This document shows, in pieces, positions 25,021-45,131 of a stretch of 53,618 nucleotides of DNA. The notes beneath the pieces are model-generated. The model did not search any database and was not told the origin of the DNA. It saw nothing but the letters and a program-made list of their open reading frames with translations. The number at the start of each line of letters is the position of its first letter. Positions within the stretch are counted from its first letter, which is position 1. The stretch lies in NCBI GenBank assembly GCA_945920825.1, contig CAMEKD010000001.1, positions 1 through 53,618 on the forward strand, in the 5' to 3' direction. A program made the position numbers and the translations under genes. The stretch comes from an uncultured Anaeroplasma sp. GTDB lineage: Bacteria; Bacillota_I; Bacilli_A; Acholeplasmatales; Anaeroplasmataceae.

Positions 25021-25054
25021 AAAAAAGGAATTCCTCAAACGAATTCCTATTTTT
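25021..25054 (-). terminator. Intrinsic terminator closing the polymerase module
   Basis: AGGAATTC-N7-GAATTCCT stem with a U-run, right after the sigma stop. Confidence 0.7.
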
Positions 25055-25058
25055 GAAT

Positions 25059-26078
25059 TTACCTATTGTATGCAAGAAGCATTTTTACAAGATCTTTATT
25101 CCTTTTTAGCTTTGCAAGTGCCTTAGCTTCAATTTGTCTTACTCTTTCTCTTGTCACCTTAACACTACCTAAGGAGGCAATCTCTTCTAATGTTTTTGGA
25201 GTATTTCCATTAAGACCAAATCTATGAATAATCACAAGCTTTTCTCTTTCTGTTAATATTTGATCTAATATATCATTCATATCCCTTTTTAGTGCATTTT
25301 CTATGGAATATTCCAGTGGGGATTTTATATTGTTATCCGGTATAAAATCTCCTAAGGTTGAATCCTCCTCATCACCAACGATAGTATCCATAGATACTGT
25401 ATCATTTTTATAAGAATCCAATTTTAATATTTTTTCTTTACTAAAGCCTGTTTGATTTGCCATTTCCTCTATAGTTGCTTCCATACCGTTATCCTTAAAA
25501 TATTGGTTTCTAGCTTTTCTAAGCCTTCTTATATCCTCACCTATATGAACAGGAAGCCTAATGGTTCTTGTTTGATCAGCTATCGCTCTTGAAATAGACT
25601 GTCTTATCCACCACGTTGCGTAAGTAGAAAAGCGATACCCCTTGGTGTAATCATATTTCATGGCTGCATGCATAAGGCCCATAGAGCCCTCTTGGACTAA
25701 ATCCATAAAATCTATATTATCTAAATAATAATGCTTTGCAATAGATACAACTAATCTTAAATTACTAGATACGATCTTATCGATAGCCATATCCCTTTTA
25801 CTTATTTTTTCTTCTAATTCCTTATAATATTCTAAGGAAATATTATCCTTGCTTGTTTTGTCAATTTCATCCTTTTCTTCCTTAGCAATATTCCCTATAG
25901 CTATAGCCTTAGAAAGCTCGATTTCTGCATCAGAATCTAACAAAGGAATTCTACCTATTTCTATTAAATACATTTTTATAGAATCAGAGGCCCCTACCTT
26001 AGCCTCCTCTAAATCTATTAGCTTTTCCTCTTCGACTAAGGCAGGGTTAAATTCTTCTTGATTCATATCCCTATTCAA
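25059..26078 (-). CDS. RNA polymerase sigma-70 factor, RpoD/SigA-like paralog lacking region 1.1
   Basis: DSIKMYLIEIGRIPLL (1.2), NLRLVVSIAK, DLVQEGSMGL, FSTYATWWIRQ (2.3/2.4), VTRERVRQIE (4.2). Not next to dnaG. Confidence 0.9.
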   Translation of the reverse strand: MNRDMNQEEFNPALVEEEKLIDLEEAKVGASDSIKMYLIEIGRIPLLDSDAEIELSKAIAIGNIAKEEKDEIDKTSKDNISLEYYKELEEKISKRDMAIDKIVSSNLRLVVSIAKHYYLDNIDFMDLVQEGSMGLMHAAMKYDYTKGYRFSTYATWWIRQSISRAIADQTRTIRLPVHIGEDIRRLRKARNQYFKDNGMEATIEEMANQTGFSKEKILKLDSYKNDTVSMDTIVGDEEDSTLGDFIPDNNIKSPLEYSIENALKRDMNDILDQILTEREKLVIIHRFGLNGNTPKTLEEIASLGSVKVTRERVRQIEAKALAKLKRNKDLVKMLLAYNR

Positions 26079-26088
26079 TTCGATAATA

Positions 26089-27891
26089 TCACGCTCCCAT
26101 TACATCCATCATATCCTTCTTTGTAAGTACGCCCTTTTTTGCAAGCATATCCGCAAGGATTAGGATTTCCTTCTTTCTTCTTTTAATAATCTTAGTAACT
26201 CTTCTTACTGCCTTATCCAAAATCCTTTCACTTAATTTCTCGTTATGATACTTCTTAAATGGAGATGTTGGAATAGAATTCGCATAATGACATAAAAGTG
26301 GATTCAATCCCTTATCCCCTAAGGTATTCACTAAGGCTGCAGAGGTATGACGGGCCTTTTCTAAATCACTTTGTGCACCTCTATCGAGTCTCTTAAATAA
26401 GATTTTTTCGGCCAAATAGCCACCAATAGATACATCTAAATCGGCTAAAGCTCGATTTAAATCTCCTATGTCTTCCTTTGTAGATAGAACCTTCACTCTA
26501 CCACCTATAATTGAATTCGTTTCGATAGAGGCCTTATAGAAGCTAAAGTATTTGCTTCTTTCCATTACCACTACTGCGTGCCCTACCTCGTGTACGGCAG
26601 TTAAATAGCGGTCAGATTCACTTGGCTCTTCGCTATCCCCATAATATTCCATTTCTCTTTTATTAATTCTATCGATGATATCTTCAATTTCCTCAACTGT
26701 AGGATTTTCTCCATATCTTAAGCGAACCTCATTTGCGATAGCCTTAATATTGACTGCATTTTCACCCTTAGTAATAAATGCTAAATAATCATAATCCTGG
26801 TTTACATTAATACCCGATTTAGCAAAATAATACTTAAGTAGGCTCTTGCGCTCCTTCTCATTTGGGTTTCCAATGCCAATTAAATAATCTAATCTTCCTC
26901 TTCTTAATAGAGGTGGATATAAATCCTCCATATTATTACAAGTTGCGATGACAAAGATATTCTTATTATCTCCACCAAGTCCATCGAGCTCCGTTAATAG
27001 ATTTCTTGTTTCACCTCTAGAGATTAAATCAATCTCATCAATTAAGATAATGGCCATACCCTTTTGACGCCTTGCAAAATTAAACTTCTCTGTGATTTCA
27101 TCCTGTTCACTAGAGTGTGTACCATCAATCTTGATAATGGTTGCATCAGGGAAAAAGGAGGTGAATGCCTTTGCGAATAAGGATTTACCTGTACCCATTG
27201 GACCGTGAAGCAAGAAGGAATGAGGCAGTGAGATTCCCTTAGCCTCTAAGGCTTCCTTATCATCCCACCAGGATTTCACTAATAATAATTCCTTTTTCAC
27301 TAAATCGTAGCCTGCAATATCAGAAAATGTTACAGGCTCTTGGTATGGTATATGCTCAAGTCTTTTCGATTGGAAGGTATAGGATTCCCTAAATTTACCA
27401 TTTTCTTCTTGAATAGTAAAATTATCAAATTCATCCTTTATATAATATTTACTATTTATACCTTCTAATTTCATATCTCTTCCTGAGGATATTAATACCA
27501 TAGTAGGGTTTAAGGAATTAATATATTCAAGTAGCTCATCCTTAATGTCTCTAAAATTATTCATATTATTAATAAAGATATGAATATCCTTCTTTTCACC
27601 AAAGGATGCAACAATATGATTTACTACTCCTTTAATTTCATCGAGCTTATTATAAAAAACAGAGAATGCATTCCCCATATGCTCATTATCATCCTCATCA
27701 TCTTCTTCTAATTCCACATCATCATCCTCATCATCAAGTCCTTTACTGATGTTAATAAAAATACCATTTTTATTTTCTTTAAGAGGTTCAGATTTATTTT
27801 CTTTAATAGATTCAAAGATTTGATGAATTAAGAATACATCACCAACAATTAAGCTTTTCTTATTATTGAATTCTTTTATTAATTCTTCCAT
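26089..27891 (-). CDS. Soluble FtsH-like AAA+ ATPase / M41 zinc peptidase
   Basis: VTFSDIAG, GPMGTGKS, IDEID, LLRRGRLD, HEVGH, GGYLAE, GAQSDLEKA. No N-terminal TM segments. Confidence 0.85.
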   Translation of the reverse strand: MEELIKEFNNKKSLIVGDVFLIHQIFESIKENKSEPLKENKNGIFINISKGLDDEDDDVELEEDDEDDNEHMGNAFSVFYNKLDEIKGVVNHIVASFGEKKDIHIFINNMNNFRDIKDELLEYINSLNPTMVLISSGRDMKLEGINSKYYIKDEFDNFTIQEENGKFRESYTFQSKRLEHIPYQEPVTFSDIAGYDLVKKELLLVKSWWDDKEALEAKGISLPHSFLLHGPMGTGKSLFAKAFTSFFPDATIIKIDGTHSSEQDEITEKFNFARRQKGMAIILIDEIDLISRGETRNLLTELDGLGGDNKNIFVIATCNNMEDLYPPLLRRGRLDYLIGIGNPNEKERKSLLKYYFAKSGINVNQDYDYLAFITKGENAVNIKAIANEVRLRYGENPTVEEIEDIIDRINKREMEYYGDSEEPSESDRYLTAVHEVGHAVVVMERSKYFSFYKASIETNSIIGGRVKVLSTKEDIGDLNRALADLDVSIGGYLAEKILFKRLDRGAQSDLEKARHTSAALVNTLGDKGLNPLLCHYANSIPTSPFKKYHNEKLSERILDKAVRRVTKIIKRRKKEILILADMLAKKGVLTKKDMMDVMGA

Positions 27892-27918
27892 ATATTCTCC
27901 TTTGTAGTAGTTTTACAT

Positions 27919-27950
27919 TATCTATATATATTCAGTTACCCCTTTTGCAA
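27919..27950 (-). promoter_or_regulatory. Putative promoter, module motif copy 2 (TTGCAAAAGG-N11-ATATATAGATA)
   Basis: Lies upstream of the FtsH-like gene RBS. Both boxes and the spacing match the copy at 36240-36271. Confidence 0.6.
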
Positions 27951-27970
27951 CCAAAAGAAAAAGGATTTGT

Positions 27971-30691
27971 TTAGTACAAATCCTCATATTCATCTAGATA
28001 ATCTTCATATGGATTATCATCTAAATAGAATTCATCATCATCAATAGAATCTATAGCATCGCTTGCTTCTAAATCCTGATCGAATAGAGCCATTTTATGG
28101 CCAAATAATGTTATATATTCCTTGTCCTTATCCGTTTTCATCCTTAGGCCTGGTTTTTTATAATCCCTACCTAATAGATCTTTAAATTTAGAGCCTTCCC
28201 TACACATAAAATAATATAAAAGAATCCAAGCATAGGATATATTATTCTTAGAATAATCATCTAGCTTTCTTATAGCCATTCTCGCTCTATTCTTATTATT
28301 GATACACTTTATGACTTCTTTCTCATGTTCATCTAAAATTCTTTGGAAGCCAGCATTCATATTCATGAATACATCCTCCCTCATTTTTAAGCCCTTCTTC
28401 TCTTCTTTGAATTTTGAATCAATTTCTTTCACCAATTCATCTAATTTATCTATAGCCTTTTTATCATGTCCATTATATTTTTTAGGATATGGGGATGAAA
28501 TGAGACTCTCGAAGGTTACTTCCTTTTCCTCACTATTCGTCAGAGGATGATCCAAAAGATATTTCACCATATAATCTAGGCCAACCTCCATACCATTTTT
28601 CATCTTAAGAGAATTCTTCTTTTCACTTTTTTCAAGGCATAATGGCATTTTTGGCCAATTGGATTTCTTTATATCTCCATTCTTATCCTTATATTCGTAG
28701 CAATATTTCTCATTTAAATTAGAAATAATCAAAGAGGTCTCTAATGGATATGGCCTTTTGGCTGAATCAATTTCCATATTAGATAATACGGCTAAAATGC
28801 AAATATCCTTATAGATATCCTCTAATTTAGGGTCATTTTTATTCTTATGAAATGTATCCCAATAAAGACAATTTAAGCAGGTCGCATAATTTACTACTGT
28901 TCCTACCTTATTATTACTAATCTTGCTGTCGGGTTTTGATAGATCAACCCTAAAGCTTTGGATATCCGATTCCTTTATAGGCTCAACTAAATTTACTGGT
29001 ACCTTAAAGCGATTCTCATTTTCTTTTGCTCTTTTATAAAGAATAGGATTATTGGTCATCATGACGGAATCAGAATCAAAATCCATTCCATTTAATCTTT
29101 GTAATATATTATGGTTAATAGAATTTACTACTACAATTTCCTTAGATAAATTGAAATAGTCATCTATGATAGGAAGATTCTTATTCTTTGTAACCCATAA
29201 ATTACCCATAGTAATATGAGGATATCTTATTATAGTTAATGCCTCACCATCACTAAAGCCTTTAGAATAGATTTCTTTATTTAATAATAGGGATTCAGGA
29301 TTATTATAATTAAATGGAGTTATCTTATCTTTTATTAATTTATCTGTATCTGCAAGAGCAATTAAAAATTCATAAGGGTTAGATAATACGGTTGCATATC
29401 TGCCTTCAATTAGAATTCTTCCCTTTTTATATTCCTTTAATAAATTATCCGTTTGGTATCTTCTAAAATCCTTAATTAATGGAGTATAGTAAAGGTCTTG
29501 CTTGCGGTTTAATAAATCCTTTACAATTTGATATTTATAATTTTGGGTCTTTGCATCATCTGAAGGATTCTTCTTATGATTTTGGTTTAAATCATAAGAG
29601 AATACATGAACATCATTTTTAAAGTATTCTCTATACTTTATTGTAGGCTCAAATAAGGATGCAATATCTTCCTTCGTAAGTGCTAGAGTATTTAATAGAG
29701 TATAGGAGCTTTTTACCATATCTCCATCAAAATATTTTGATTTCTTATCAAATTTACAAATACCAAATTCCTCTTCGAAGGTTGGATCAGAAATCCATTT
29801 GTTAAATTGTGCTTCTAGATTATCCTCTTCTGCAAATTTTAAATATTTTAGTGAGGAATAGGTACAAACAAGCTTAATATCTTCTATTCTTTCTGCTAGA
29901 GTAAAGAAGCCCTTTTTCTTTTTTAATCCACCTAAAGTTGCATATTTCTTTAGCCACTTTTGAAGCTTTGTGTTAAAGGCACAGCATTTAAAGAATTTAT
30001 TTCTAAGAAGCATCATAGAATGAGGCTCATCAAGCTGTTTGAAGCAGGATTCATCTAATAATCCTTCTCCATCCCAAATGGTATTTTCAATTTCAACTAC
30101 CTTTTCTTCTACAGTTAAATCACCCTCACCAAAAACGGCATAGCAATCCTCCTTAAAGTTGGATTTCGCATCAGGAATAATTAAAATAGCTTTCTTTGGA
30201 ATTTTTACGGATGCACAAATATTCGATAGGGTTAATGCTTGATAGGATTCAAAGGAAACAGGGTTTTCCATAACCTTTTTATTATCATAGCTTAATCCAG
30301 CTAATGCCCAAGCCTCCATTTTCTCCTTGTATTTTTCTTGAATGAAATAGCAGTTACCTTCTCTTGCAGAGGAGGCGGTTCTTTTATATCTGACGTAATG
30401 AATGCCTTTAATATTAAAACCCTCTTCATAAAGAAGAGCTCTGTTTTTTTCCATACTCCTACTAGAGGAAAAGGATACCTGGACAAGCTCCGTTATGGAG
30501 TCTAGATTTGTATTCTCTTTATCCTTATCTTGGTTAATTTCATATAATAGCCTTCTAGATTCCATAGAATCAGAAAATATGGATCTATGAGAAATAGATT
30601 CTTTGCTTGGATCCTTTAGACCTGAAATATTTCGATTTTGCTTCATAATTTCACTTGCTGATAGATGCCATATATATCTTCCACTTATCAT
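27971..30691 (-). CDS. Single-subunit two-barrel RNA polymerase, YonO-like / eukaryotic RdRP homolog
   Basis: Motifs in the RdRP order: IWDGEG (~aa207), LRNKFFKC, IIRYPH (~489), RLNGMDFDSD (DxDxD, ~537-541), GTVVN, EIDSAK (~642). Confidence 0.8.
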   Translation of the reverse strand: MISGRYIWHLSASEIMKQNRNISGLKDPSKESISHRSIFSDSMESRRLLYEINQDKDKENTNLDSITELVQVSFSSSRSMEKNRALLYEEGFNIKGIHYVRYKRTASSAREGNCYFIQEKYKEKMEAWALAGLSYDNKKVMENPVSFESYQALTLSNICASVKIPKKAILIIPDAKSNFKEDCYAVFGEGDLTVEEKVVEIENTIWDGEGLLDESCFKQLDEPHSMMLLRNKFFKCCAFNTKLQKWLKKYATLGGLKKKKGFFTLAERIEDIKLVCTYSSLKYLKFAEEDNLEAQFNKWISDPTFEEEFGICKFDKKSKYFDGDMVKSSYTLLNTLALTKEDIASLFEPTIKYREYFKNDVHVFSYDLNQNHKKNPSDDAKTQNYKYQIVKDLLNRKQDLYYTPLIKDFRRYQTDNLLKEYKKGRILIEGRYATVLSNPYEFLIALADTDKLIKDKITPFNYNNPESLLLNKEIYSKGFSDGEALTIIRYPHITMGNLWVTKNKNLPIIDDYFNLSKEIVVVNSINHNILQRLNGMDFDSDSVMMTNNPILYKRAKENENRFKVPVNLVEPIKESDIQSFRVDLSKPDSKISNNKVGTVVNYATCLNCLYWDTFHKNKNDPKLEDIYKDICILAVLSNMEIDSAKRPYPLETSLIISNLNEKYCYEYKDKNGDIKKSNWPKMPLCLEKSEKKNSLKMKNGMEVGLDYMVKYLLDHPLTNSEEKEVTFESLISSPYPKKYNGHDKKAIDKLDELVKEIDSKFKEEKKGLKMREDVFMNMNAGFQRILDEHEKEVIKCINNKNRARMAIRKLDDYSKNNISYAWILLYYFMCREGSKFKDLLGRDYKKPGLRMKTDKDKEYITLFGHKMALFDQDLEASDAIDSIDDDEFYLDDNPYEDYLDEYEDLY

Positions 30692-30700
30692 ATAAAACTC

Positions 30701-31861
30701 CTACTTTTTCATAATTGCTACTTTCCCATAAGGTGGTTTTACCTCATCGTTTGTCAAAAGCCAAAGAAGGGGTATATTCCCCTTTTCCTCTTCTTTGGGG
30801 AATGTGGCATAGCCATCCGTTAATATAATTAAATATTTTGGTTTATTTTCCATTTGCATCACATATCGAAATACATTATGGAAGGAAGTGCCTCCACCAC
30901 CCTTTGGTATTATTTTAGTTAAATCTATGGAGCTATCAAATGGAATGGGCTCATAAACCTTTGCATCAAAAAAGCCTATAAGGCCCTTAAGCCTGCCCTC
31001 AAATGCTTGAATCGCACCATTGATTTCGCTATAAACCAATGTAATATCCTCTATCGACATAGAGCCTGAGGTATCTACCATGAATAATACATCCTCTAAA
31101 TTTTCATCCATTTCACTAAAGCTTGGCATAAAGAATTCCGCGTCATATCTTCTATCTGGTGGAGTAAAGGTATAATCATTGATTTCAAATTCAATAAATT
31201 CATTTAAAAGCTCTCTCCAGTTTACTCTAGATTCCTTTAGCTCCTTGACTAATCTTTCTACACCAAATGGAATAGAGCCAACCCCGGGCTTACCATTTTG
31301 GTGTGCTCTATCCTCCATATCCTTAATGGCAATGATTTTCGCATTGACATCATCTTCTCTTTCCTTATCCATTTCCCATTTCGAATGATCATCAAACCCT
31401 AAGGACGGAATTCTGTTTCCGTTTTTCAAAAGCTTTTCATAAACCTCTTCTGCAGTAAATAGATATCCTTCCTTACCTTCAATTTGATGCATAGAGATAT
31501 TCCCATTTACCTTGATAGCATCTAAATTCATTCCCTTAGACTTTAGGATATTGGAATTCACTACAATATCACAAGCGATATTAAATAACTCCTGATTATA
31601 TTTTAAGCCTCTTTTGCAATGCTTTAGGGCTACATGCATAACCTCATGCATTAAAACGAAATCAAGCTCCATGTCGGATAAAGATTCCATAAATTTTGGG
31701 CTAAAGCAAATTTTTTCTCCATCGGTATAGGCTGTATCACAGCCAGGATCTAAGCCAAAGGCCATGTTTTCTAGCATAATACCATAAAATCCATAATTGG
31801 TAAGAATTCTTATTCTAGCAAGTAATAATCTTCTTTGATATTCTTTCATACTAGATTGCAT
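30701..31861 (-). CDS. Zincin-like metallopeptidase plus vWA domain protein (DUF2201-like)
   Basis: TAYTDG, HEVMH, FNIACD..VN, DDHSKW, VNWRELL. MIDAS motifs VDTSGSM, GGGTSF and LTDG. Confidence 0.88.
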   Translation of the reverse strand: MQSSMKEYQRRLLLARIRILTNYGFYGIMLENMAFGLDPGCDTAYTDGEKICFSPKFMESLSDMELDFVLMHEVMHVALKHCKRGLKYNQELFNIACDIVVNSNILKSKGMNLDAIKVNGNISMHQIEGKEGYLFTAEEVYEKLLKNGNRIPSLGFDDHSKWEMDKEREDDVNAKIIAIKDMEDRAHQNGKPGVGSIPFGVERLVKELKESRVNWRELLNEFIEFEINDYTFTPPDRRYDAEFFMPSFSEMDENLEDVLFMVDTSGSMSIEDITLVYSEINGAIQAFEGRLKGLIGFFDAKVYEPIPFDSSIDLTKIIPKGGGGTSFHNVFRYVMQMENKPKYLIILTDGYATFPKEEEKGNIPLLWLLTNDEVKPPYGKVAIMKK

Positions 31862-32963
31862 CTAGGAATCTTCCCTTCTCTCTTAGCCACTTCATAAATT
31901 CAGGGATTTTTAATAGCTTTTGCTTATAATCCTTTTCTAAATATAAATAATCCTTAAGTAATACAATCGAATAATCCGGTGGTAGCATATTTGCATATAA
32001 TATACTATTTCTGATTAAATCTAAATCATCTCTATGATGATATGCATAGGCAACCATAGAGGATTCTAGTGCGTATAATACGTCTGGTTCCTTGGGTACT
32101 TTAGTTTCTTCTCCTTTGAATATTTTTTCAATATTCGGTAATTTCGAATAGACCTTTGTATAGGTTCTAAGCTCAGTTGCAAGACCTTTACCTAAAATAC
32201 CTGCAAGTAAATCGAAGACATCCTTAAAATCATAGGATACCGTATTTAAGATATTCGATGCTAATTCCCAAGATCTTGGTGTTGCAAAAACAATACCATT
32301 ATCCTGGGGATTAAAGGTATTTAAGCAATCGGGCTTAAAGCGCAAAAATCCTAAGATATATTCATGAATTCCTTTAGAGATTGCCCAGTTATGCCATGAG
32401 TCTGGGTCTACAGCTACCTCTAAATGTAATAAACGATTGGCAAGTGCCTTTGGCATTTGGTAGGCAACCGATTTATCGGTTACTCTATTTCCTGCCGCAA
32501 GAACAATACAGTTTTTGGGGAGTTTATGCTCACCAACCATACGGTCTAGGGTAATTTGGTATGCTGCTGCTTGTACGGATTGTGGGGCCGCACTAATCTC
32601 ATCTAAGAATAAAATGTTGATGACATCTTCACTTTCATCCATTTGGAATATTTTAGGCTTTAACCAAACCGCTAGGGTTTTATCCTCGTTTGCGGTTGGA
32701 ATACCTCTTAAATCGATTGGATTAAATAGAATTAATCTTACATCAATTACATTACATCTTTTCTTTAATCCTAATTCTAAATCACAAGCTAAATCATGAA
32801 TGGCTTGGGATTTACCAATACCAGGCTGACCCCAAAGCATTACGGAAGGTAATGCCTTTAGGGGTACATTCTTTTCTATTGCTCTTGCATACATTTTATA
32901 TAATATTTTTCTTACATCCCCTGGGTTTAATACAGGAACATTTCCAATTGTTGTTTTATCCAT
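31851..32963 (-). CDS. MoxR-like (AAA_5) AAA+ ATPase
   Basis: WGQPGIGKS, DLRGIP, LFLDEI, AAGN, ALANRL, TPRSW. Confidence 0.88.
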   Translation of the reverse strand: MDKTTIGNVPVLNPGDVRKILYKMYARAIEKNVPLKALPSVMLWGQPGIGKSQAIHDLACDLELGLKKRCNVIDVRLILFNPIDLRGIPTANEDKTLAVWLKPKIFQMDESEDVINILFLDEISAAPQSVQAAAYQITLDRMVGEHKLPKNCIVLAAGNRVTDKSVAYQMPKALANRLLHLEVAVDPDSWHNWAISKGIHEYILGFLRFKPDCLNTFNPQDNGIVFATPRSWELASNILNTVSYDFKDVFDLLAGILGKGLATELRTYTKVYSKLPNIEKIFKGEETKVPKEPDVLYALESSMVAYAYHHRDDLDLIRNSILYANMLPPDYSIVLLKDYLYLEKDYKQKLLKIPEFMKWLREKGRFLDAI

Positions 32964-35900
32964 TGATGTTTAACTCCTTTTCTATAGCCTTTATTTCTCT
33001 TGCTAAGGACTCTATTGCAGAGGAATAATCTGGTTTCTTTAATACCTCTTCCTCAATCGCAATCTTTCTATTCTTTAAATCTAATAAATTACTATCTGAT
33101 GTATCTAATCTTTCCTTCATAGAATTTAAATAATTATCGATTCTTGGTAATATACCCATTTCTGAATTACCCATAGTTACCATATAGGTACCCTTACCCT
33201 TTAATCTTAGGAATAGATAATTGGCAAGCATATTGTCTGGATAATATACCTTAAATCCTTGGTAATCCATGATATATTCCTCTTCTTCCATATTTAAATG
33301 CTCCATTAAACCAGTCCATAAAATTTTGCGAATTTCTGTTCTTTTTTCAGTAGTATACTCCTGTTTGTTTTCCTCATAGAGGATAACATCCTCTTGTAAA
33401 TTAGAAACACGACTTTCTTGTTCTTCAATTTTTGTAGGTAATTGCATTAATTCTCTTTCAAGTAGAGTAAATCTTGCCTCTGTTCTCTTTTGTAATAGCT
33501 TAAGCTTATTTAATTGATTTGTTTTATCCGCATAATCTTTAAGTCTAGGAGATCCTATAGCTAATGCCTTAACCTCACCATAGCTTAATACAGTATCTGC
33601 GATATCATCCTTAGATCTATCTGTTAATGCATTCGATAATAAATCATTAATAAATCTTTGCTTAGTTTCAAGTAGCTGCCAAGAATATGCATCAAAGGAG
33701 CCTTCTAAGATATATCTATGAATAAAGACCTCTTTATTTTGATTCTTTTGTCTTATAATTCTTCCTTCTCTTTGCTGCATATCCGATGGTCTCCAAGGAA
33801 TCGATAGGTGATGAATCGAATATAGCCTATCCTGTACATTTACACCTGTACCAAGCTTTTCCGTTGAACCGATTAATACTCTTACCTCTCCATCTCTTAC
33901 CCTTTTAAATAGTTTCGTTCTTTTTGCCTCTGTTGTAGCATTATGTATATATTCAATTTCGCTATCCTTAATACCAAATTGAACAAGCAATCTTTTTACC
34001 TCATCATATACATTAAAGCCATCCTTGGGAGTACCAATGTCTGAGAAAACTAATTGAGTGCCCTTGAATGAATTTGTTGTCAAATAATCCTTTAATATGT
34101 TTTGACAGCATGCATATATTTTACCTTTAGTTTCATTCTTATAGGTAACCTCATCAATTAAACGCATATCTAAGGCTGCCTTTCTACCATCGGTTGTAAC
34201 CTTAAGTAGATTATCATCCTTCCTAGATATTCTATGATTTCTTATATCCTCAACTCTTATAGAAATATTAGCTAAATAATCCTTAAAGCCTTGCGTTTTC
34301 TTAATTAATGTATCTGTATATGCATCAAATTTAGGTAGCTCATCGCTATTCTTAGTGTAATAGAAATCACAAACCTCAGATAATATCTGTGTTAATTCAG
34401 GTAAATTATGAAATCTTGAGAACCTGGTATTTACTCTATAGCCTTGGGTATCTAAATCAATCTCAAGCTCCTCGTGAGCTTCAGCAAATTGGCTACTCCA
34501 GTTATCAAAGGTATCAATATCTAATAGCTTTAATTCTGAATTTTGTAAATAGCGCTGTATCGCATAGCAATCCGTAACGGAATTCGTTATTGGAGTACCA
34601 GATGCTAAAATTACGCCACCATCATTTTTGTTTAAATAATCGATAACCTCAAGCATATGCATACATTTCTTAGACCCTTGGGTATTTAAGCCTGCAATTT
34701 CACCCATATGAGATACTAATGGGATATTCTTATAATTATGTGCCTCATCGACAAATAATCTTGTAATACCTAATTTATCGAAGGAAATATCTTCATCACT
34801 ATTCTCTCCTTCCTTAATTAAATCGCTAAGCTTTTCCTCTAAAGATTTTAAATAACGGTCTAAGGTTTTTGTTTGATATTTAGGATCCTTAGCTTCTAGA
34901 TTTAAAACCTCTTGAATTTGCTTTTCCAAATTCAATTTCTTTTCCTCAAAGGATAAGGGTATAGAATCAAAGGAAGAATGAGGAATAATAATAGATTTAT
35001 ATTCGGAATCTCTTATAAGCTCTAATGTTTTTCTTCTATTCTGTGTTGAAAAATCTGTTGACTTTAGGCTTAAGAATTTCGCAGTAGGATATAAATAGGA
35101 ATAGGCCTCTGCCCATTCACCTGTAATGGTATTCGGAACAACAAATAAATTCTTTTTCGATTTAGAGGTTCTAAGTAATTCCTCACCACCCGCAATCATT
35201 TCGTAGGTTTTACCTGCACCTACATTATGTGCAAGATAGGTATTTTTGGTTAAAAGAATTCTTGCGACGGCATTCTTTTGGTAATCAAATAGGGTAACCT
35301 TAGGGTTAATACCCTTAAAATCAATAAAATTGCCATTAAAGATTCTAGATACATTGTAGCCAAATAATGTATTATAGGCTTCTACTAGCTTATCCTTATA
35401 TTCATACCTTTCATCAATCCACTGATGGAATTTTTCTTCCATAGCACGAGCCTTTTCCTGTAAAAGAAGAGTTTCTTCCTTATTTAGGATGTTTACAGTT
35501 TTTAGTTTACCATTATTATCATAATTTCTTTTAATATCATATACCGTTAGCTTTTTACTATTTAATAGTCGTTCTAAAATTTGAGTAACTTTAACTCTAG
35601 AGGTTCCATAGCTTAAATTATAGCGATAGCTCGCTAAATAATCAGGAATCTCCCAAATACCTGTAATGGTATCATGTAAAATCATTTCCTTTGCGGAATC
35701 TGTTTTACCTAAAATAGAACAAATAAAGCTTCTAATGATATCATGAGGAATCCAAGGGGAGGATAGCTTATAATAGATTTGATCGATATCTACACCCTTA
35801 GGTAATATTTTTAAAATGGCATCAATATTATCCTGAAATGCACCATTATAAATTTTATTGGCTTCTTGAGCACTTCTTAATTTTGTTAAAAGATTGCCAG

Positions 35901-36213
35901 ATAGGTATTCCTCACTCGTTAAGAAGCCCTTATAATATACACCCTTAAATAAGGTAGGGTCTTGAAATATAGCCCCTCTTAATCTTTTAATACAATCCTC
36001 TAAGGAAATTCCTGTAATTTTAGATATGTATTCAATATCTACCTTACCTAAATTCTTTAAGGAATATAAAAGACCATCGCCTGCAGATTCTGCATGAACC
36101 TCTTCTATTTTATCCTCATTATCTACCTCGAGAATATCCCAATCTAGTGGTAGGTCAACGGGATTATCGAATTCAACAGTACTATCTTCAATGAATTTTT
36201 TTGTATATTGCAT
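32956..36213 (-). CDS. SNF2-family helicase of the ICE/phage methylase-helicase (DarB-like) type, without a methyltransferase domain
   Basis: EYLSGN, YQKNAV, AHNVGAGKT, VDEAHNYKN, ASGTP, QLVFSD, GTGVNVQ, PWRPSDMQQREGRIIRQ. Confidence 0.85.
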   Translation of the reverse strand: MQYTKKFIEDSTVEFDNPVDLPLDWDILEVDNEDKIEEVHAESAGDGLLYSLKNLGKVDIEYISKITGISLEDCIKRLRGAIFQDPTLFKGVYYKGFLTSEEYLSGNLLTKLRSAQEANKIYNGAFQDNIDAILKILPKGVDIDQIYYKLSSPWIPHDIIRSFICSILGKTDSAKEMILHDTITGIWEIPDYLASYRYNLSYGTSRVKVTQILERLLNSKKLTVYDIKRNYDNNGKLKTVNILNKEETLLLQEKARAMEEKFHQWIDERYEYKDKLVEAYNTLFGYNVSRIFNGNFIDFKGINPKVTLFDYQKNAVARILLTKNTYLAHNVGAGKTYEMIAGGEELLRTSKSKKNLFVVPNTITGEWAEAYSYLYPTAKFLSLKSTDFSTQNRRKTLELIRDSEYKSIIIPHSSFDSIPLSFEEKKLNLEKQIQEVLNLEAKDPKYQTKTLDRYLKSLEEKLSDLIKEGENSDEDISFDKLGITRLFVDEAHNYKNIPLVSHMGEIAGLNTQGSKKCMHMLEVIDYLNKNDGGVILASGTPITNSVTDCYAIQRYLQNSELKLLDIDTFDNWSSQFAEAHEELEIDLDTQGYRVNTRFSRFHNLPELTQILSEVCDFYYTKNSDELPKFDAYTDTLIKKTQGFKDYLANISIRVEDIRNHRISRKDDNLLKVTTDGRKAALDMRLIDEVTYKNETKGKIYACCQNILKDYLTTNSFKGTQLVFSDIGTPKDGFNVYDEVKRLLVQFGIKDSEIEYIHNATTEAKRTKLFKRVRDGEVRVLIGSTEKLGTGVNVQDRLYSIHHLSIPWRPSDMQQREGRIIRQKNQNKEVFIHRYILEGSFDAYSWQLLETKQRFINDLLSNALTDRSKDDIADTVLSYGEVKALAIGSPRLKDYADKTNQLNKLKLLQKRTEARFTLLERELMQLPTKIEEQESRVSNLQEDVILYEENKQEYTTEKRTEIRKILWTGLMEHLNMEEEEYIMDYQGFKVYYPDNMLANYLFLRLKGKGTYMVTMGNSEMGILPRIDNYLNSMKERLDTSDSNLLDLKNRKIAIEEEVLKKPDYSSAIESLAREIKAIEKELNING

Positions 36214-36239: not shown

Positions 36240-36271
36240 TATCTATATATCGAAATATATTCCTTTTGCAA
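36240..36271 (-). promoter_or_regulatory. Putative promoter, module motif copy 1 (TTGCAAAAGG-N11-ATATATAGATA)
   Basis: Lies upstream of the AAGGAGG RBS of the helicase. Matches the copy at 27919-27950. Confidence 0.6.
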
Positions 36272-36467
36272 GAGAATAATATAGCTTATTTTGACATTAT
36301 TCGTGTCTAAAAGAAAAAAAGTTTTATTTTTTATTATATTCATTATAATAGAATTCATTAATGAATTCTAGAGAAGTGAAATTATTTTAATAATATATTC
36401 TATAACAGGAAAACGTTTTGTTACAGGCTTACAGCCTAAAATGTGCTATACTCGTTATGGTGATACT

Positions 36468-37835
36468 ATGACAAAGGATTTAACATGCGGTAAGCCAAGC
36501 AAAGTGATTTTCACGTTTTGTCTTCCACTTTTCGCATCCGTAATTTTTCAACAATTATATAATATTGCAGATTCCTTGGTTGCAGGAAATTTTATCGAAA
36601 ATGGAGAATCTGCCATAGCCGCGATCGGTAATTCCTATGAGATTACCTTAGTTTATTTAGCGTTTGCCTTTGGCTGTAATATGGGGTGCTCCGTCATTGT
36701 TTCTAGATTCTTTGGGCAAAAGGCAATCAACAAAGCTAAAGCCTCTATTTACACTGCCTTAATTACAACGACCATTACCTGCCTAATCCTGATGGTTTTA
36801 GGATTAACCTTAGGAGAGACGATATTAAGATTAATTAAAACTCCAGAAAACCTACTAGCTGATTCTAAGCTATATTTAGATATTTATACCTACGGCTTAT
36901 TATTTGTATTTATATATAATTTATGTACTGGAATATTTAGCGCCTTTGGCGATTCCAAAACGCCATTCATATTCTTAGCTATTTCTTCTATAGCTAATGT
37001 ATTTATGGATATAGTATTTGTTGTGGAATTTCAAATGGGTATTGCAGGTGTTGCCTGGGCAACCTTCATTTGTCAGGGAATATCTAGCATTCTATCCTTT
37101 GTTATTGTTTTATATAGAATTAAAAAATTAAAGCCATTTGAAAATGAAATAGATACGGTAAAGCCGTTTGATTTTAGACTACTTAAAACCATGCTTATAA
37201 TAGCTATTCCATCGATTTTGCAGCAATCCTTTGTCTCTATAGGGAATATTCTAATTCAATCCGTAATTAATTCCTTTGGGGAATCAACTATGGCTGGGTA
37301 TAGTGCCGTAATTAAGCTGCAAAATTTGGTCGTAACTGGGCTTACTACCCTAAGTAATGGCATTTCAAATTACACTGCACAAAACCTAGGTAGGGGCAAA
37401 ATAGAGCGTATCAGGCCCGGGTTTATATCTGGGCTAAAGCTTACTCTAATTTTAATTATTCCATTTTCCATTATCTATTTCTTCTTTGGTAAATATATTG
37501 TACAAATCTTCTTAAAGGAAGGTACATCAAGTGATGCCATAGAGATTGCGAACAATTTCTTAAGAATCATCGCGCCATTTTATATTTTAGTTGCGACAAA
37601 ACTAATTGCAGATGGTGTAATTCGAGGATATGCCAAAATGGGACTATTCATGACAGATACCTTCTTAGATTTGTTTTTAAGAGTAGGCCTTGCCTTCCTC
37701 TTCCCTTATGTATTCCATTTAGGTTCAAATGGAATATGGCTTTCTTGGCCTATTGGTTGGGGCTTATCGATGGGGCTTGCTGTAATCTTCTATATTTTCG
37801 TTACAAAGGATAAAAATAAAAATCTATATGAGTAG
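36468..37835 (+). CDS. MATE family efflux transporter
   Basis: KDLTCGKP, FQQLYNIADS, GDSKTP, MGIAGVAWAT. About 12 TM helices. Confidence 0.92.
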   Translation: MTKDLTCGKPSKVIFTFCLPLFASVIFQQLYNIADSLVAGNFIENGESAIAAIGNSYEITLVYLAFAFGCNMGCSVIVSRFFGQKAINKAKASIYTALITTTITCLILMVLGLTLGETILRLIKTPENLLADSKLYLDIYTYGLLFVFIYNLCTGIFSAFGDSKTPFIFLAISSIANVFMDIVFVVEFQMGIAGVAWATFICQGISSILSFVIVLYRIKKLKPFENEIDTVKPFDFRLLKTMLIIAIPSILQQSFVSIGNILIQSVINSFGESTMAGYSAVIKLQNLVVTGLTTLSNGISNYTAQNLGRGKIERIRPGFISGLKLTLILIIPFSIIYFFFGKYIVQIFLKEGTSSDAIEIANNFLRIIAPFYILVATKLIADGVIRGYAKMGLFMTDTFLDLFLRVGLAFLFPYVFHLGSNGIWLSWPIGWGLSMGLAVIFYIFVTKDKNKNLYE

Positions 37836-37915
37836 GGGCTGTTAAGAAACTAAAAATCTTAACAGCTTCTTTTTTTCGTCTATTTACGCCAATAACAACT
37901 ACGTTGTTAAGAAAC
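37834..37915 (+). repeat. GGGGCTGTTAAGAAAC hairpin repeat, copy 1 (also positioned to act as the MATE terminator)
   Basis: About 80 bp matching the reverse complement of 40864-40948, including the second box AATAACAACTAYGTTGTTAAGAAAC. Confidence 0.75.
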
Positions 37916-38108
37916 AACCCTCTATATTTCACTGCGGCAATATTAATTGAGACTATATGCTTACGAATAATTTTAGAACAAAAGACTACTTCATTGAAAA
38001 GTAGTCCGCGAATCCCCTAGGGGATTGTTATATTAATTAATAATTGTACAAAATAACTGTACCTTAATTGTTCATTTTTATATTGACTTTAATACTTCCA
38101 TATCATCA

Positions 38109-38441
38109 CCATAAATTGCACCTTTTTGCAATATCTTTTTATCCATAAATTGCACCTTTTTGCATTTATATCGCTTTTTGCACAAAAAACATAAGCAAAT
38201 TACCATAAAATTATATTAGTCCCCATAAAAATAGTCACCATGTAGTCAACGAGATGATAATCATTTTTATAAAAGATACACAAGATATTTCTATTAATTG
38301 CACGTTTTTACAATATAAAACATGTTATTAATTGCACGTTTTTTGATTTTTACAGATTAAGAAATACTTCCCATATTACTTTTTTCAACAATAAAAATGC
38401 AATAATTTAGACCACTTTTTAGACCACTTTTTAGACCACTT
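38109..38441. repeat. Cluster of short direct repeats
   Basis: CCATAAATTGCACCTTTTTGCA x2 (38109, 38143), TATTAATTGCACGTTTTT x2 (38292, 38326), TTTAGACCACTT x3 (~38406-38441). Confidence 0.8.
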
Positions 38442-38470: not shown

Positions 38471-38841
38471 GTAGAAAGATCTGTAAAACCTTTCGTAATC
38501 GCAAAAAAGAATTTCTTATTCTCTAAAACTGAAAATGGAGCACAAGCATCAGGCTTATTATTTTCAACAATCCAAACAGCCAAAGCAAATGGATTATGCA
38601 TAGAATATACCTAGAATATATTTTAAATAACATCGATAAAATTAAAATTGATGATATTTTACCATGGAGTGAAAAGCTTCCTAAAGAACTAAAATTGAAT
38701 TTGAAATAATAAAACAGAGACAAACTCGTATAAAATGTGGGTTTGTCTCTGTTTTTGTTTTATTGGAAGTTATGAAATCTCGCATTAAATGTGAGATTTT
38801 TTCACTTCGTAATCACCTGGAAATCTTTTATGGACACTTTC
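38471..38841 (+). mobile_element. IS66-family transposase (TnpC) 3' remnant
   Basis: VERSVKPFVIAKKNFLFSKTENGAQASGLLFSTIQTAKANGL, frameshift, then YLEYIL...ILPWSEKLP, stop at 38709. Followed by a hairpin and a possible decayed right IR near 38827-38841. Confidence 0.8.
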
Positions 38842-38877: not shown

Positions 38878-40259
38878 TTACTTTATTACCTTCCAATAAC
38901 CGGTTTTGTTAGAACCAACTCTCTCAATAATACTATTTTTTCTTAGGAAAGCTATAATATTATCTATTGAAGTTTTTCCTAAATCACATTTTACCATCAA
39001 TTCTGGTTTAGTAATATTTGTGTTATTTCTTATCTCAGCTAACACTTTTATTTGAGAGATGTTAAGATTCATATCACCCATTTTATCACCCACTTTATCA
39101 CCCACTTTATTGATTCTATTAAATGGGATTGTGACTAATATAGTATCATCGGATATATCAATAGCGTCTTTTCCATACACTTCAATTATTTTAGGTATCC
39201 CTAACCTGTTTTTTCACTTATGTGTAATTGCAAAAATATTTCTGATAATTTTTCATTTACAGGAATTGAATGTCCTTTATAAAAACCATTAATTGTCTGA
39301 AGTGGGGCTAATTCCCCTCTAGATAATATTTCTATTCTATCATTATAAATAGCAATCATAGGTTCATTTAAACCAATCCATCTATTATGTAGGAATGCAT
39401 TTATTACTGCTTCTCTATAGACATCATAATCAAATAGCATGACTTCTTCACGTTCCATTATTCTATTATCTTCTTTGGTCTGTGGAACATTCAATATTTC
39501 TCCATAATTTAATACTTCATATAAAGAATACAATAAGCATTTATAACCAAATTCTTTTACAGAATACATTTTACTTGCTTTTGTTTTACCATCAAATATA
39601 GCGACTCTAATTGGCACATATGAATTATCGGATAGCAATTGAGCCATGATATTATATTTACCATCCTTAGTTAATAGATGAAGATTAGCTTTAAAATTAT
39701 TCTTATTTAAAGTTATTCCCTTAGATGAGTAATAGTTAAATAACTGATTAAATGTTAGATCTTGATATTCAGATTCCTTATTGGTAATTGTTGGAAGGCC
39801 AAATGTTAGAACAGAAAATAGGAAAGCTTCTCTTTGCGGATATTTTTTTAGATTTTCTTTGCTAGATCCTATTCTTATATATCTAATACCATCAAAATCA
39901 GTTGGGACTATCTTAGCTGCTGGTATAGTAAGAACTACAATTCTTTTTCCACCTACTATAGCTTCATCAAAATAAAAAGGAATACTGGGTGATATTTTCC
40001 TAGCTAAATAATGTTGAATAGGTTCTCCATTATTATCAGCATTATAATTAATAACAGTACCTGTAATATTATGCGATCTGTTGTCAATTCCCCAAATCAT
40101 ATAGGCATTAGGCTTACCTAATATAGCAGCACTATTTGAAAGGGCAGAAATATATTGACCCACATCATCAATAACAAACATATTTTCTTCATATTCTACC
40201 CATTCAAGTTCATCATCGTAACTTAAGCATTCATTTAAAATCTTATTTATATCATTCAT
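38878..40259 (-). pseudogene. AlbA_2/Schlafen-like domain plus HATPase_c_4 plus wHTH protein, split by a 1-nt frameshift near 39203
   Basis: ELEWVEYEEN, YISALSN, MIWGID, YIRIGSS, REAVINAFLH, EKTG, then GIPKII..YG, KVGD repeats and ERVGSNKTGYWKV. ATG 40259 follows GGTGA. Confidence 0.8.
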
Positions 40260-40602
40260 TTTTATCACCCACCATATTACGAATATATTACACAATACCA
40301 TGGGTGATAAAGCAATGATTATAAACACAGCATTTAATATATTTACGATTACTAAAAAGTACAATAGTATACCACTTACATAATTTATATATGGTGTCAT
40401 ACAATGTCGAGTGGACTCAAACTGAATCCATTTTTTATCCACCACCAAATGATTTTTAGTGTATAAAGGTGTATCCACCAAAATGATATCGAAGAATTGT
40501 AAAAACCGGACGAAATTGACGTTTTGTACAAAATATCGCGACAAACCGGATAATATGTAACGCCATAGACAAACAAAACGATATTTTTCAGGATTCATTT
40601 GA

Positions 40603-40645
40603 ATCCTAAGCTAGTGTCTTGCGTTCGAATCGATAGGGAACGCCA
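40603..40645 (+). other. Degenerate tRNA-Arg(CCT)-like 3' half, copy 1 (att-like scar)
   Basis: ATCCTAAGC...GTTCGAATCG...GGGAACGCCA. Near-identical to 42742-42784. Confidence 0.5.
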
Positions 40646-40961
40646 TAAAGATATTAAAAGGGGCTGTTAAGAAACCAAAAAGTTTCTAGGAGCTTTCTTT
40701 TGCATAAAATCATTGTTACAATAGAAAAATGTGTTTAATCTTGGCTTTTACTAACTATTTTAAAGTCTTCCTCTCAATAAAACCAAGCGGAGTTTCTTAA
40801 CAATGTGATTGTTAAGCTTTTTTACTAATAAAAATATACAAATTTAGAGCCATTTTTCACTAAGTTTCTTAACAACATAGTTGTTATTTCACAAAATATA
40901 TAGAAAAAGGGTTATTAAGAAATTGTTAGTTTCTTAACAGCCCCTTTTTAGTATTTATGGC
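40642..40961. mobile_element. MITE-like segment bounded by ~33-bp imperfect inverted repeats
   Basis: GCCATAAAGATATTAAAAGGGGCTGTTAAGAAAC (40642) versus the reverse complement of 40929-40961. Internal GTTTCTTAACAA boxes at ~40792 and ~40864. No ORF. Confidence 0.45.
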
Positions 40962-41110
40962 CTTTTGATTTCATATAATTTAAAACTTCAAAATATTCTT
41001 TTAAAGTTTTAAATCAAAGTAATTTCATTTTCTTCATTTGAATGCCTTGAACAAGAGGCTACAGCATATATTTTACATCCTTCTAGAGCCGTTTTTTTAA
41101 TATTATAAGA

Positions 41111-42469
41111 TCAAAGAACTGAAGCCATATAGTATGGCAAATAGATAATTTCTTCTTCTCTTTTTATATCTCCATCATATAAAACATATTGTAACCCAAC
41201 TTTGCTACTAAAACATTTTTTAAATTGCTTTAGCGAAGACAAAGAATACGCCTTAGATGATTTTACTTCAATAGGTATTAATTTATTATCGCGCCTAATT
41301 AAAAAATCTATTTCCATAATAGTTTGTTTCTTTTCTTTATCTGTTTTTTTATAATAATATATGTTGTCCCCATTTTTTCTTAATTCTTGGGCAGTAATAT
41401 TTTCTATTATCATTCCCTCGTTAACATGTAATCTATCTAATAATATTGCCTTGTACAATTCATTGTTTAAATAATCTTGATTCTTATATGCTAATGATAT
41501 TAATAGGCCAGTATCACCCATATAACATTTAAATGCTGGATCAATAGTTGAAAGATTGAATGCAGCACTTGGATCACTAACATTTTCAGCAACATTAACT
41601 GTCATTGACTCAATTAACCAGTTGATAGGACCTTTATATTCTCTTAGTCTGGCATTCGTATCAACATGCGACAAATTATATCTCTTATCATGCTTTGATA
41701 ATTCAGATGGAATATGCCAAAAAACATTTTTGACATATTCTGGGTTTTCTTCTTCTTGTTCATCTATATCTGATTCATATAGATTTAATATTCCTTGTTT
41801 AACGAAATCAACCTCACCATAATCAGAAGTTTTTATATACTTATAGACAGCCTGAGGCATACCACCCACTAGCATATATTCTCTATATGCTCTCATTAAT
41901 GATCTATGAGCAGTTCCTATCGGTTTTAATTTATTATAATGGTCTTTTATTAATTCATAAGAAAACGAATCACCTTTTGCCCATAAAAATTCTTCAAAAT
42001 CCATAGGATATATGTTTAATGCATATTCCTCTGAGGGAATTAGTATTTTCTTAGATTTTTTCTTTATTGTTGCAAGAGACCCGGTTTCAATGTAATCATA
42101 TCTCTTATCTTCTAAAAGAGTTTTTAAGGCTTGTCTAGCTAAAGGAAATAATTGGATTTCATCTAAAATTATTAACGATTCTCTCTCGTATAATTTTTTC
42201 TTATAAAAAACTTGTAAGGTATTAAATAGATTATCTAAATCTTCCAACGAATTGACAAAAAGATTTTTTATTTCATCTGGAGCCTTATCAAATCTTATTA
42301 ATATATATGATTTGTATTTTTCTTTTCCTATCTTTTCTGCGAGTGTTGATTTACCAACACGTCTTGCTCCCTTCAAAAATAAAGCATAATCAGGTGCTCT
42401 TTTTTCTTTCCATTCTAGTATTTTATCATATGCTTTTCTTTTAAATTCAATATCTAATTGCTCATCCAT
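41111..42469 (-). CDS. AAA_14 ATPase with DUF4143 and C-terminal PD-(D/E)XK-like domain
   Basis: FKRKAY, GARRVGKST, ILDEIQ, ETGS, YPMDFEEF, VGGMP, YMGDTG, EIDF..IPIEVKS. ATG 42469 follows GAGGAG. Confidence 0.88.
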   Translation of the reverse strand: MDEQLDIEFKRKAYDKILEWKEKRAPDYALFLKGARRVGKSTLAEKIGKEKYKSYILIRFDKAPDEIKNLFVNSLEDLDNLFNTLQVFYKKKLYERESLIILDEIQLFPLARQALKTLLEDKRYDYIETGSLATIKKKSKKILIPSEEYALNIYPMDFEEFLWAKGDSFSYELIKDHYNKLKPIGTAHRSLMRAYREYMLVGGMPQAVYKYIKTSDYGEVDFVKQGILNLYESDIDEQEEENPEYVKNVFWHIPSELSKHDKRYNLSHVDTNARLREYKGPINWLIESMTVNVAENVSDPSAAFNLSTIDPAFKCYMGDTGLLISLAYKNQDYLNNELYKAILLDRLHVNEGMIIENITAQELRKNGDNIYYYKKTDKEKKQTIMEIDFLIRRDNKLIPIEVKSSKAYSLSSLKQFKKCFSSKVGLQYVLYDGDIKREEEIIYLPYYMASVL

Positions 42470-42480
42470 AACAACTCCTC

Positions 42481-42558
42481 CACATTTGCGAACCTTTTTC
42501 AAACTTATTTTATCACATTTGCGAACTTTTTTCAAACTCATTTTATCACATTTGCGAA
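42481..42558. repeat. 33-bp-period tandem repeat upstream of the DUF4143 ATPase
   Basis: CACATTTGCGAA starts at 42481, 42514 and 42547, with near-identical spacers. Confidence 0.85.
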
Positions 42559-42736
42559 AACAATTTAATTGATATATTTTTTCCATAAAGTTGGAGTTCC
42601 ACTTACTACACCCATTTTCAAACAAATTTTCCACTAATTTTCCACCAAAATGAAATAAAAGATATGGACGTTATACAAAAAGCTATATAATTTGTGGAAG
42701 ACATTTGGCACTATAAAAGCTATTTTATCATTTTTT

Positions 42737-42784
42737 CTTGCATCCTAAGCGAGTGTCATTCGTTCGAAACGATAGGGAACGCCA
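42737..42784 (+). other. Degenerate tRNA-Arg(CCT)-like 3' half, copy 2 (att-like scar)
   Basis: Anticodon arm CTTGC-ATCCTAA-GCGAG pairs fully (one G-U). GTTCGAAA T-loop and a GCCA end. No 5' half. Confidence 0.55.
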
Positions 42785-42796
42785 TAAAGATATTAA

Positions 42797-42838
42797 AAGG
42801 GGCTGTTAAGAAACTAAAAATCTAACAGCCCCTTCTTT
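42797..42838. terminator. GGGGCTGTTAAGAAAC hairpin repeat copy, positioned as terminator of the XRE-like gene
   Basis: AAGGGGCTGTTA...TAACAGCCCCTT stem. Confidence 0.65.
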
Positions 42839-43617: not shown

Positions 43618-43627
43618 TTCTTATACC

Positions 43628-45079: not shown

Positions 45080-45131
45080 ACACACGCAAAAAATAATCAC
45101 ATACTCTTAGTAAAACTACAAGAAGACCATA

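Follow-up and report, generated by a model that had tools for sequence, protein, structure and literature searches.

What YonO-like polymerases do in bacterial chromosomes is a question on which light may be shed by a compact, bounded and selected locus of an uncultured gut Anaeroplasma sp. (contig CAMEKD010000001.1 of assembly GCA_945920825.1; the whole 53,618-nt stretch analysed is called the window, and its host genome, 91.9% complete, is called G000). Six genes on the minus strand encode an SNF2-family DNA translocase, a MoxR-type ATPase and a zincin-vWA protein (together referred to as the trio), followed by a predicted polymerase of the YonO/RNA-dependent RNA polymerase (RdRP)-like kind, a soluble FtsH-like protease and a sigma factor. 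We find that the block is an imported, now stably inherited and selected island. Comparison of related sequences indicates that its genes are separately travelling modules joined in one island, not subunits of a conserved machine. The promoter region carries a palindromic box that also precedes repair genes of the host, and the locus matters less as a six-gene system than as a predicted damage-wired home for an enigmatic polymerase. Its features are the following.

36293..36308, minus strand: palindromic box AGACACGAATAATGTC, replacing the -35 element; candidate site of the host HTH-WYL-WCX regulator
36276..36281, minus strand: -10 hexamer TATTAT, 11 nt after the box, an offset shared by 14 of 22 sites
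36240..36271, minus strand: bipartite motif TTGCAAAAGG-N11-ATATATAGATA, 58 nt before the SNF2 start; candidate promoter
32956..36213, minus strand: SNF2-family DNA translocase, 1085 aa; helicase half of DarB-like proteins, no methylase
31851..32963, minus strand: MoxR-type AAA+ ATPase, 370 aa (AAA_3, PHROG 1297)
30701..31861, minus strand: zincin (HEVMH) fused to vWA, DUF2201, 386 aa (PHROG 1314)
27971..30691, minus strand: predicted YonO/RdRP-like single-chain two-barrel RNA polymerase, 906 aa (active-site residues, predicted fold, YonO alignment)
27961..27985, minus strand: terminator-like hairpin at the polymerase stop codon; the sister species has a similar one
27919..27950, minus strand: second copy of TTGCAAAAGG-N11-ATATATAGATA, 59 nt before the protease start
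26089..27891, minus strand: soluble FtsH-like AAA+/M41 protease, 600 aa (Walker A/B, HEVGH; no membrane segment)
25059..26078, minus strand: RpoD-like sigma-70 paralogue without region 1.1, 339 aa; 46% identical to host RpoD
25026..25048, minus strand: intrinsic-terminator-like hairpin closing the island

The original prediction had described a single block of six co-oriented open reading frames (ORFs), spaced by -8, -11, 9, 79 and 10 nt from SNF2 to sigma, closed by a terminator and placed between ordinary transporter genes. All these points stand, the flanking genes being of the MATE and CDF families. It had overlooked the hairpin at the polymerase stop codon and the two promoter motifs; this hairpin and the second motif copy suggest that the block is likely split into two transcription units.

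The start of the island shares 71 nt (75%, E 2e-6 in a non-coding comparison) with the DNA preceding the sigma gene of an independent island in the congener G019, which holds polymerase, sigma and soluble FtsH genes and has the same box before its sigma gene. The core common to both boxes is the palindrome GACA-N7-TGTC. Elsewhere in G000 the box is found ahead of dinB/umuC-yolD, of addB-addA and of a tnpB-like gene, with a variant before the sole HTH-WYL-WCX gene; the box-bearing regulon genes are on contigs C3, C15, C43 and C109. A strict pattern, derived from these same sites, is matched 5 times in G000 and 0-1 times in each of 10 shuffles. Across 40 genomes of the genus, the exact box was found at 23 sites in 11 genomes, all of them intergenic, while a reversed control gave 2 matches. 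At 14 of 22 sites a TAnnnT -10 element begins 11 nt after the box, no other offset between 0 and 29 being used by more than 4 of 22-23. Genes downstream of boxes across the genus again include dinB/umuC-yolD, addB-addA, WYL, yolD-like and tnpB genes, and the WYL gene is preceded by the box or a variant in G000, G019, G021 and G027. No LexA was found in G000, at the completeness given above, and a single WYL gene was. For comparison, the site bound by DriD is described as ATACGAC-N7-GTCGTAT, covering the -35 position with a constant spacing to the -10 (PMC13004042), and an account of PafBC links a WYL-type damage regulon to the proteasome (PMC8223512). Altogether, these data point to a probable WYL-controlled DNA-damage regulon (dinB-yolD, addBA and the WYL gene itself) in a lineage in which LexA was not found. 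Since the island promoter has the box of the host repair genes, DNA damage or invading DNA is likely to induce the island.

Three other ideas about these signals were dropped. The box does not mark trio or polymerase loci at large, as it was not found in those of Clostridia; its CG form is not specific to the island, as it also precedes addB in the sister species genome G001; and a GGC-AAA-GCC hairpin promoter gave 7 one-mismatch matches against 6.1 expected, none of them exact. A different palindrome, TGTCC-N8-GGACA, was noted before a sigma gene that follows the trio in another congener (locus L147, G015:C54), and a similar one precedes the WYL gene of locus L146 (G027:C5).

The bipartite motif appears to be private to the island. 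Its two copies are perfect, no other site in G000 comes within 2 mismatches, and both copies are preserved in the sister strains. A 24/32 match was reached by none of 150 shuffles. The presence of shared promoter motifs points to a regulatory coherence of the island.

As concerns its origin, the CDF and MATE genes are adjacent in the congener G027, about 150 bp apart, and this empty site indicates that a divergent promoter region received the block as an insertion of 11.4 kb. The sister strains hold the island at the same chromosomal place. Island GC content resembles that of the genome. Comparison with the sister strains gave ratios of nonsynonymous to synonymous substitution rates (dN/dS) of 0.11-0.28 for whole or near-whole island genes and 0.08-0.14 for the flanks, with similar dS; two short gene fragments gave 0.28 and 0.36, and the polymerase (0.23-0.28) is among the highest in the island. 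All six ORFs are thus intact and under purifying selection, which rules out a decaying pseudo-operon. No capsid, terminase, integrase or relaxase gene was found among the 34 window ORFs scanned, and tblastn of G000 with nine mobility proteins returned no relaxase and two weak integrase matches, both on other contigs. A prophage remnant is ruled out by the lack of phage genes, by the position of the polymerase outside the phage clades and by the lack of yonJ, terminase or portal neighbours. Fixation, selection and the lack of mobility genes support the earlier view of a chromosomally domesticated block, distinct from a remnant of a prophage or of an integrative and conjugative element (ICE). 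No direct repeat of at least 11 bp was found between the flanks that would mark a target-site duplication or an attachment (att) site, and contigs from 8 runs, which show presence only, included no credible circular joint indicative of excision. Contigs from four RNA-labelled runs span parts of all six genes and were not counted, as contigs cannot show transcription; the longest bovine contig pieces lie over the protease and sigma genes and a pig-gut run also spans the flanks, a distribution that cannot rank the genes. In the sister species (L148, G001:C103), an extra 274-aa ORF lies between CDF and the sigma end of the island.

The claim that the six genes form a conserved system was not borne out. 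SNF2 directly precedes the MoxR-vWA pair in 15 of 17 clostridial loci and in all 7 close family loci (22 of the 24 close MoxR loci), and in none of 5 distant ones. The polymerase is absent from all 29 of these MoxR stretches, several of which are short contigs. In 401 genomes drawn from the order of G211, chosen as the centre of the draw, the MoxR gene was present in 16 and the polymerase in 13, both occurring only in G211; among 201 genomes of the window's own order, the two were together in none outside G000. Within the genus, 4 of 40 genomes have the trio ATPase and 3 of 40 a non-phage polymerase. The trio is thus kept without the polymerase, and the polymerase occurs mostly without the trio. 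An exception to separate travel is locus L025, where the order is polymerase-SNF2-MoxR-vWA. In the clostridial genome G214, two contigs end in complementary halves of SNF2; joined, they would carry the trio and the polymerase, soluble FtsH, WYL and GmrSD, a second AAA ATPase, a PAN-like ATPase and four proteasome-like genes, so that this genome probably holds the trio, soluble FtsH and polymerase, five of the six, in one island together with WYL. The full set was seen only in the window's lineage. Thus, the co-occurrence foreseen by the original prediction is largely missing for all six genes together, and is found for partial sets (G214, G019, L025); nor do homologous blocks always sit inside intact prophages or ICEs.

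Other combinations occur in congeners. G015 has the trio with a sigma gene, G019 the polymerase with sigma and soluble FtsH, and G027 the closest soluble FtsH relative with neither trio nor polymerase. The sigma and protease beside the G019 polymerase are 31% and 25% identical to those of the window and are not orthologues; the G015 sigma is likewise at 31%, the window sigma being nearer to host RpoD; the idea of one machine built around the polymerase is therefore not supported by these partners. A sigma-region-4 protein and a soluble FtsH also stand beside a third polymerase, at locus L049. WYL, GmrSD, kinase and proteasome-like genes adjoin trio and polymerase loci elsewhere, and 3 of 17 trio loci have an NAD-dependent DNA ligase nearby. 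An extra FtsH-like copy was present in 16 of 106 family genomes and in all 4 having a non-phage polymerase, a weak association, with 3 of these 4 in the query alignment. The G027 island (L146) comprises a serine recombinase, WYL, Nmad3 and HAD genes besides the FtsH relative; at its N-terminus this relative still has a P-loop, of which the window protein shows what looks like a decayed form. Another FtsH-like gene is found at a distance of 14 kb.

The domain calls made earlier for the six proteins hold, by Pfam and PHROG matches for five and by fold and YonO alignment for the polymerase, and catalytic motifs are intact across the block. The SNF2 protein, with SNF2 and Helicase_C domains, matches PHROG 10089 over nearly its whole length (E 3e-222) and covers only positions 2103-3179 of the 4647 in the profile; the fused methylase that is the hallmark of DarB was not found in its 1085 residues. 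The MoxR gene (PHROG 1297, E 6e-95) and its HExxH-vWA neighbour (PHROG 1314, E 8e-80; DUF2201_N and DUF2201 both above cut-off) form a pair with intact motifs. The protease has AAA and Peptidase_M41 domains, scores 149 bits against a model cut-off of 600, and has none of the N-terminal membrane anchors of FtsH by hydropathy comparison (maximum 1.02, vs 3.51 in host FtsH). Regions 1.2, 2, 3 and 4 were detected in the sigma-70 protein. The host has a separate RpoD and a membrane FtsH on other contigs.

No Pfam polymerase model matches the 906-aa protein. Its AF2 model (predicted local distance difference test score, pLDDT, 80) had RDR2 and QDE-1 as its best structural matches (Foldseek E 2.5e-14 for RDR2); VIA gave Z 27.1 against RDR2 (root-mean-square deviation 6.5 over 591 aligned residues) and Z 24.2 against QDE-1. 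A family profile aligned with SPbeta YonO at a probability of 96.6 (22% over 511 columns). Residues D207, R230, K235, R489, P491, D537, D539 and D541 are invariant in 67 sequences and were matched to QDE-1 by motif and spacing, not by residue-level superposition, following the eight invariant active-site residues of two-barrel polymerases given in PMC2919709. Model and alignments thus identify the protein as a predicted single-chain polymerase with two double-psi barrels, of the YonO/RdRP-like kind. Among these enzymes, DNA-dependent RNA synthesis is described as demonstrated for YonO only (PMC5467207).

The family numbers 1419 proteins among 7997 candidates (1892 clusters at 50%). Loci examined were the best 80 of 200 from GTDB, the best 80 of 309 from metagenomes and 46 viral ones; context counts use the 45 of 83 genome loci that have at least 3 kb downstream. 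A mobilizable-element backbone, consisting of either a MobL relaxase with tyrosine integrases or a MobA relaxase with TnpV and a serine recombinase, was assigned to 33 of these 45, some of them via the HTH gene that opens such a backbone. One locus is a prophage, and the remaining 11 are without such a backbone, L050 among them having a recombinase. Genes of the soluble FtsH-like, PAN-like or proteasome-like kinds, or the trio, accompany 8 of the 11 backbone-free loci and 1 of the 33 mobilizable-type loci. With three independent pairs behind it, this association is better taken for a probable ancestral state than for repeated proof. Midpoint-rooted trees, in which long branches meet at the root, recovered one non-phage clade with a support of 100 (FastTree, 69 rows) and 98 (IQ-TREE quick, 34 chosen rows). 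Both relaxase groups nest within it, and the window polymerase lies outside them on a long branch near the G019 enzyme. Neighbouring yonJ, terminase or portal genes were found in 0 of 82 non-phage loci, and yonJ in 76 of 83 phage loci.

Several arrangements of this family deserve mention on their own. YonO-like polymerases open integrative mobilizable elements of two families, MobL-type (L020, L038, L047, L051, L069, L237) and MobA-type (L070, L073, L080, L083), holding the usual spot of a replication gene and followed by the relaxase and an integrase or serine recombinase; a polymerase so placed is a candidate primase. At L013, L021, L031, L044, L053 and L159, in Clostridia and one Acholeplasmatales genome, the polymerase is followed by 2-4 proteasome-subunit-like genes; a PAN-like AAA ATPase accompanies these in most cases, and kinase, vWA, PP2C and WYL genes do so often. 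A gene of 90-130 aa with no Pfam match adjoins the polymerase in the protease-type islands L019, L021, L044, L053, L158 and L159. L018 has two homologues on opposite strands (~1000-4000 and ~10000-13000), 38% and 19% identical to the query. Phage-type polymerase genes at L134, L135, L162-L164, L176, L212 and L213 are split by an inserted ORF, possibly an intron or homing endonuclease.

What the island does is best approached from its genes, its insertion, the selection on it, its two promoter motifs and the gene company of the box, from which we infer all steps of the mechanism that follows. Our favoured reading, held tentatively, is an anti-invader or stress island induced through the host WYL regulator when single-stranded DNA (ssDNA) appears. 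Damage would be one source of such ssDNA, a replicating phage or plasmid another. Activated by it, the HTH-WYL-WCX dimer would occupy the box in the -35 position, and host RNA polymerase could then transcribe the SNF2, MoxR, zincin-vWA and polymerase genes. The trio would act as one machine: SNF2 would track double-stranded DNA, vWA and MoxR would grip and unfold DNA-bound proteins and the zincin would cut them, in analogy to the removal of proteins stuck or cross-linked on DNA by Wss1/SPRTN with Cdc48. The extra sigma, on the host core enzyme, would recognise the private motif upstream of each unit and thereby boost the response; later, the soluble protease would degrade sigma and other response proteins, as FtsH does with sigma32. 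The polymerase would make RNA on DNA despite host shut-off, sharing the induction window and not requiring a complex with the others; the modules would be co-regulated passengers of one kind of island. The stress or antiviral role proposed at the outset is plausible. Of the self-contained alternative transcription system likewise proposed, the intact, selected, chromosomal and regulatorily coherent unit finds support and the single polymerase-centred machine does not.

Several observations weigh against the anti-invader or stress reading. The exact box pattern is missing from 29 of the 40 genus genomes, and the box is lineage-limited and defined from its own sites. Similar palindromes precede 2 of 20 SNF2 genes (both in sister strains) and 2 of 94 non-phage polymerase genes; a relaxed scan found no box before recA or uvr genes in G000, and several boxes precede genes of no known kind, or none. 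Its position before tnpB indicates that selfish DNA can carry the box for its own ends. The shuffle margin of the private motif is thin (24 observed, at most 23 in shuffles), and duplication of an ordinary promoter would give the same picture. The three independent pairs underlying the protease association divide 2 to 1. No PADLOC (2023) or NCBIfam defence model matched over length or cut-off.

Possible, though rather unlikely, is that the block is stranded cargo of a selfish element, whose mobility genes were lost while the rest works separately or is kept for unrelated reasons. The polymerase would have served the element as primase or for private transcription, and the box would have timed mobilisation to DNA damage. 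The 33 mobilizable-element-like loci among 45, the box of tnpB, the shuffling of modules between genomes, the long branch and high dN/dS of the window polymerase, and the proposal in PMC3417536 that RdRP-like enzymes of selfish elements are primases would all agree with such an origin. Against it, the relaxase clades nest within the non-phage clade with the window branch outside (under a midpoint root), neither an att repeat of at least 11 bp nor, with nine queries, a relaxase homologue was detected, and all six genes remain under purifying selection. Our first guess, a relaxase-element remnant, is weakened by this branch position and by the flanks of related islands, where integrase and relaxase queries had no match in 14 extended stretches.

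A DNA-repair accessory is unlikely. Here the trio would clear stuck or cross-linked proteins, the polymerase would prime restart and the protease would end the response, much like the Pup-proteasome after PafBC. This would suit the box common to dinB-yolD and addBA, the DNA ligase near some trio loci, the link between PafBC and the proteasome described in PMC8223512, and the G019 polymerase, which is co-directional with addA and begins 53 nt behind it. However, addB of G019 has no upstream box, and the patchy distribution of polymerase and trio in the genus, together with defence-type neighbours, fits conflict better. Very improbable is a single transcription machine in which sigma, translocase, chaperone and protease all serve the polymerase: polymerase, sigma and soluble FtsH do occur together twice in the genus, with L049 as a third polymerase case, and the private motif precedes both units, but the partners are non-orthologous and differently ordered, the trio lacks the polymerase in nearly all loci, the island sigma retains an RpoD-like sequence, and RdRP/YonO-type enzymes are described as lacking the sigma-binding flap insert of cellular polymerases (PMC7824862).

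A wider version of the anti-invader reading, which we regard as doubtful, is that gut Clostridia and Acholeplasmatales carry ssDNA-triggered islands combining a domesticated, cell-encoded polymerase of the RdRP/YonO type, soluble AAA+ proteases (FtsH-like, proteasome-like, MoxR-zincin) and a private sigma and promoter. These would form an emergency transcription and proteolysis circuit on the WYL regulon that runs through phage shut-down of host transcription. If true, it would give the bacterial relatives of the RNAi polymerase a first cellular role outside phages.

Outside the island, short non-coding stretches at 37830-38320 of the window are 96-99% identical to several places in other genus genomes and are followed by a long hairpin (38711-38755), possibly a small mobile repeat. 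Positions 38878-53618, of low GC (0.23-0.32), hold Schlafen AlbA_2, AAA_14-DUF4143, HTH and Trk/Kdp-type potassium genes and are probably another acquired stretch.

Every part of the island belongs to a known family; what appears new is the combination, the relaxase and protease contexts and the wiring to the box. In open-access main texts we found no paper linking YonO with integrative mobilizable elements, and none on DUF2201 with MoxR, on proteasome/WYL/RdRP islands or on WYL with Acholeplasma and LexA. The locus points to a DriD/PafBC-like damage regulon in Acholeplasmatales and to polymerase-headed mobilizable elements; being compact and bounded, with two predicted promoters, it makes induction, template and partners directly testable.

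Among known systems, MZA, DISARM and IetAS share only single domains with the island (sigma, SNF2 helicase and AAA ATPase); these matches are partial and far below curated cut-offs, and the other genes of those systems are not in the block. The SNF2 protein corresponds to the helicase part of DarB-like methylase-helicases (PHROG 10089), yet it is a fixed partner of MoxR-vWA. The MoxR AAA+ and metallopeptidase-vWA genes of jumbo phages (PMC7824862; such pairs are also treated in PMC12839542) are described as the same two-gene pair with the same domain fusion; the island pair differs in being cellular, with the methylase-less SNF2 ahead of it in 22 of 24 loci and no virion genes. YonO of SPbeta (PMC5467207) is reported, as predicted for the island polymerase, to be a single-chain two-barrel enzyme with a catalytic triad, and SPbeta is damage-induced as the island is predicted to be; the island enzyme, in contrast, belongs to a non-phage clade and lies beside proteases and sigma, without yonJ, terminase or portal. 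The RdRP-like polymerases of selfish elements (PMC3417536, PMC2919709) are likewise chromosomal, sporadic and found in mobile or island DNA. The partners named for them are restriction endonuclease (REase)/URI nucleases or RNase H, and relaxase-integrase backbones, AAA+ proteases and a damage box do not figure in the passages of these accounts concerned with them. Finally, the DriD and PafBC regulons, as described in PMC13004042 and PMC8223512, resemble the island's host in having an HTH-WYL-WCX regulator, repair genes, a protease link and a GAC...GTC palindrome that covers the -35 and keeps a constant distance to the -10. The spacer between GAC and GTC is 9 in the island box and 7 in theirs, and the Acholeplasmatales regulon, deduced from sequence only, would differ in controlling an imported island.

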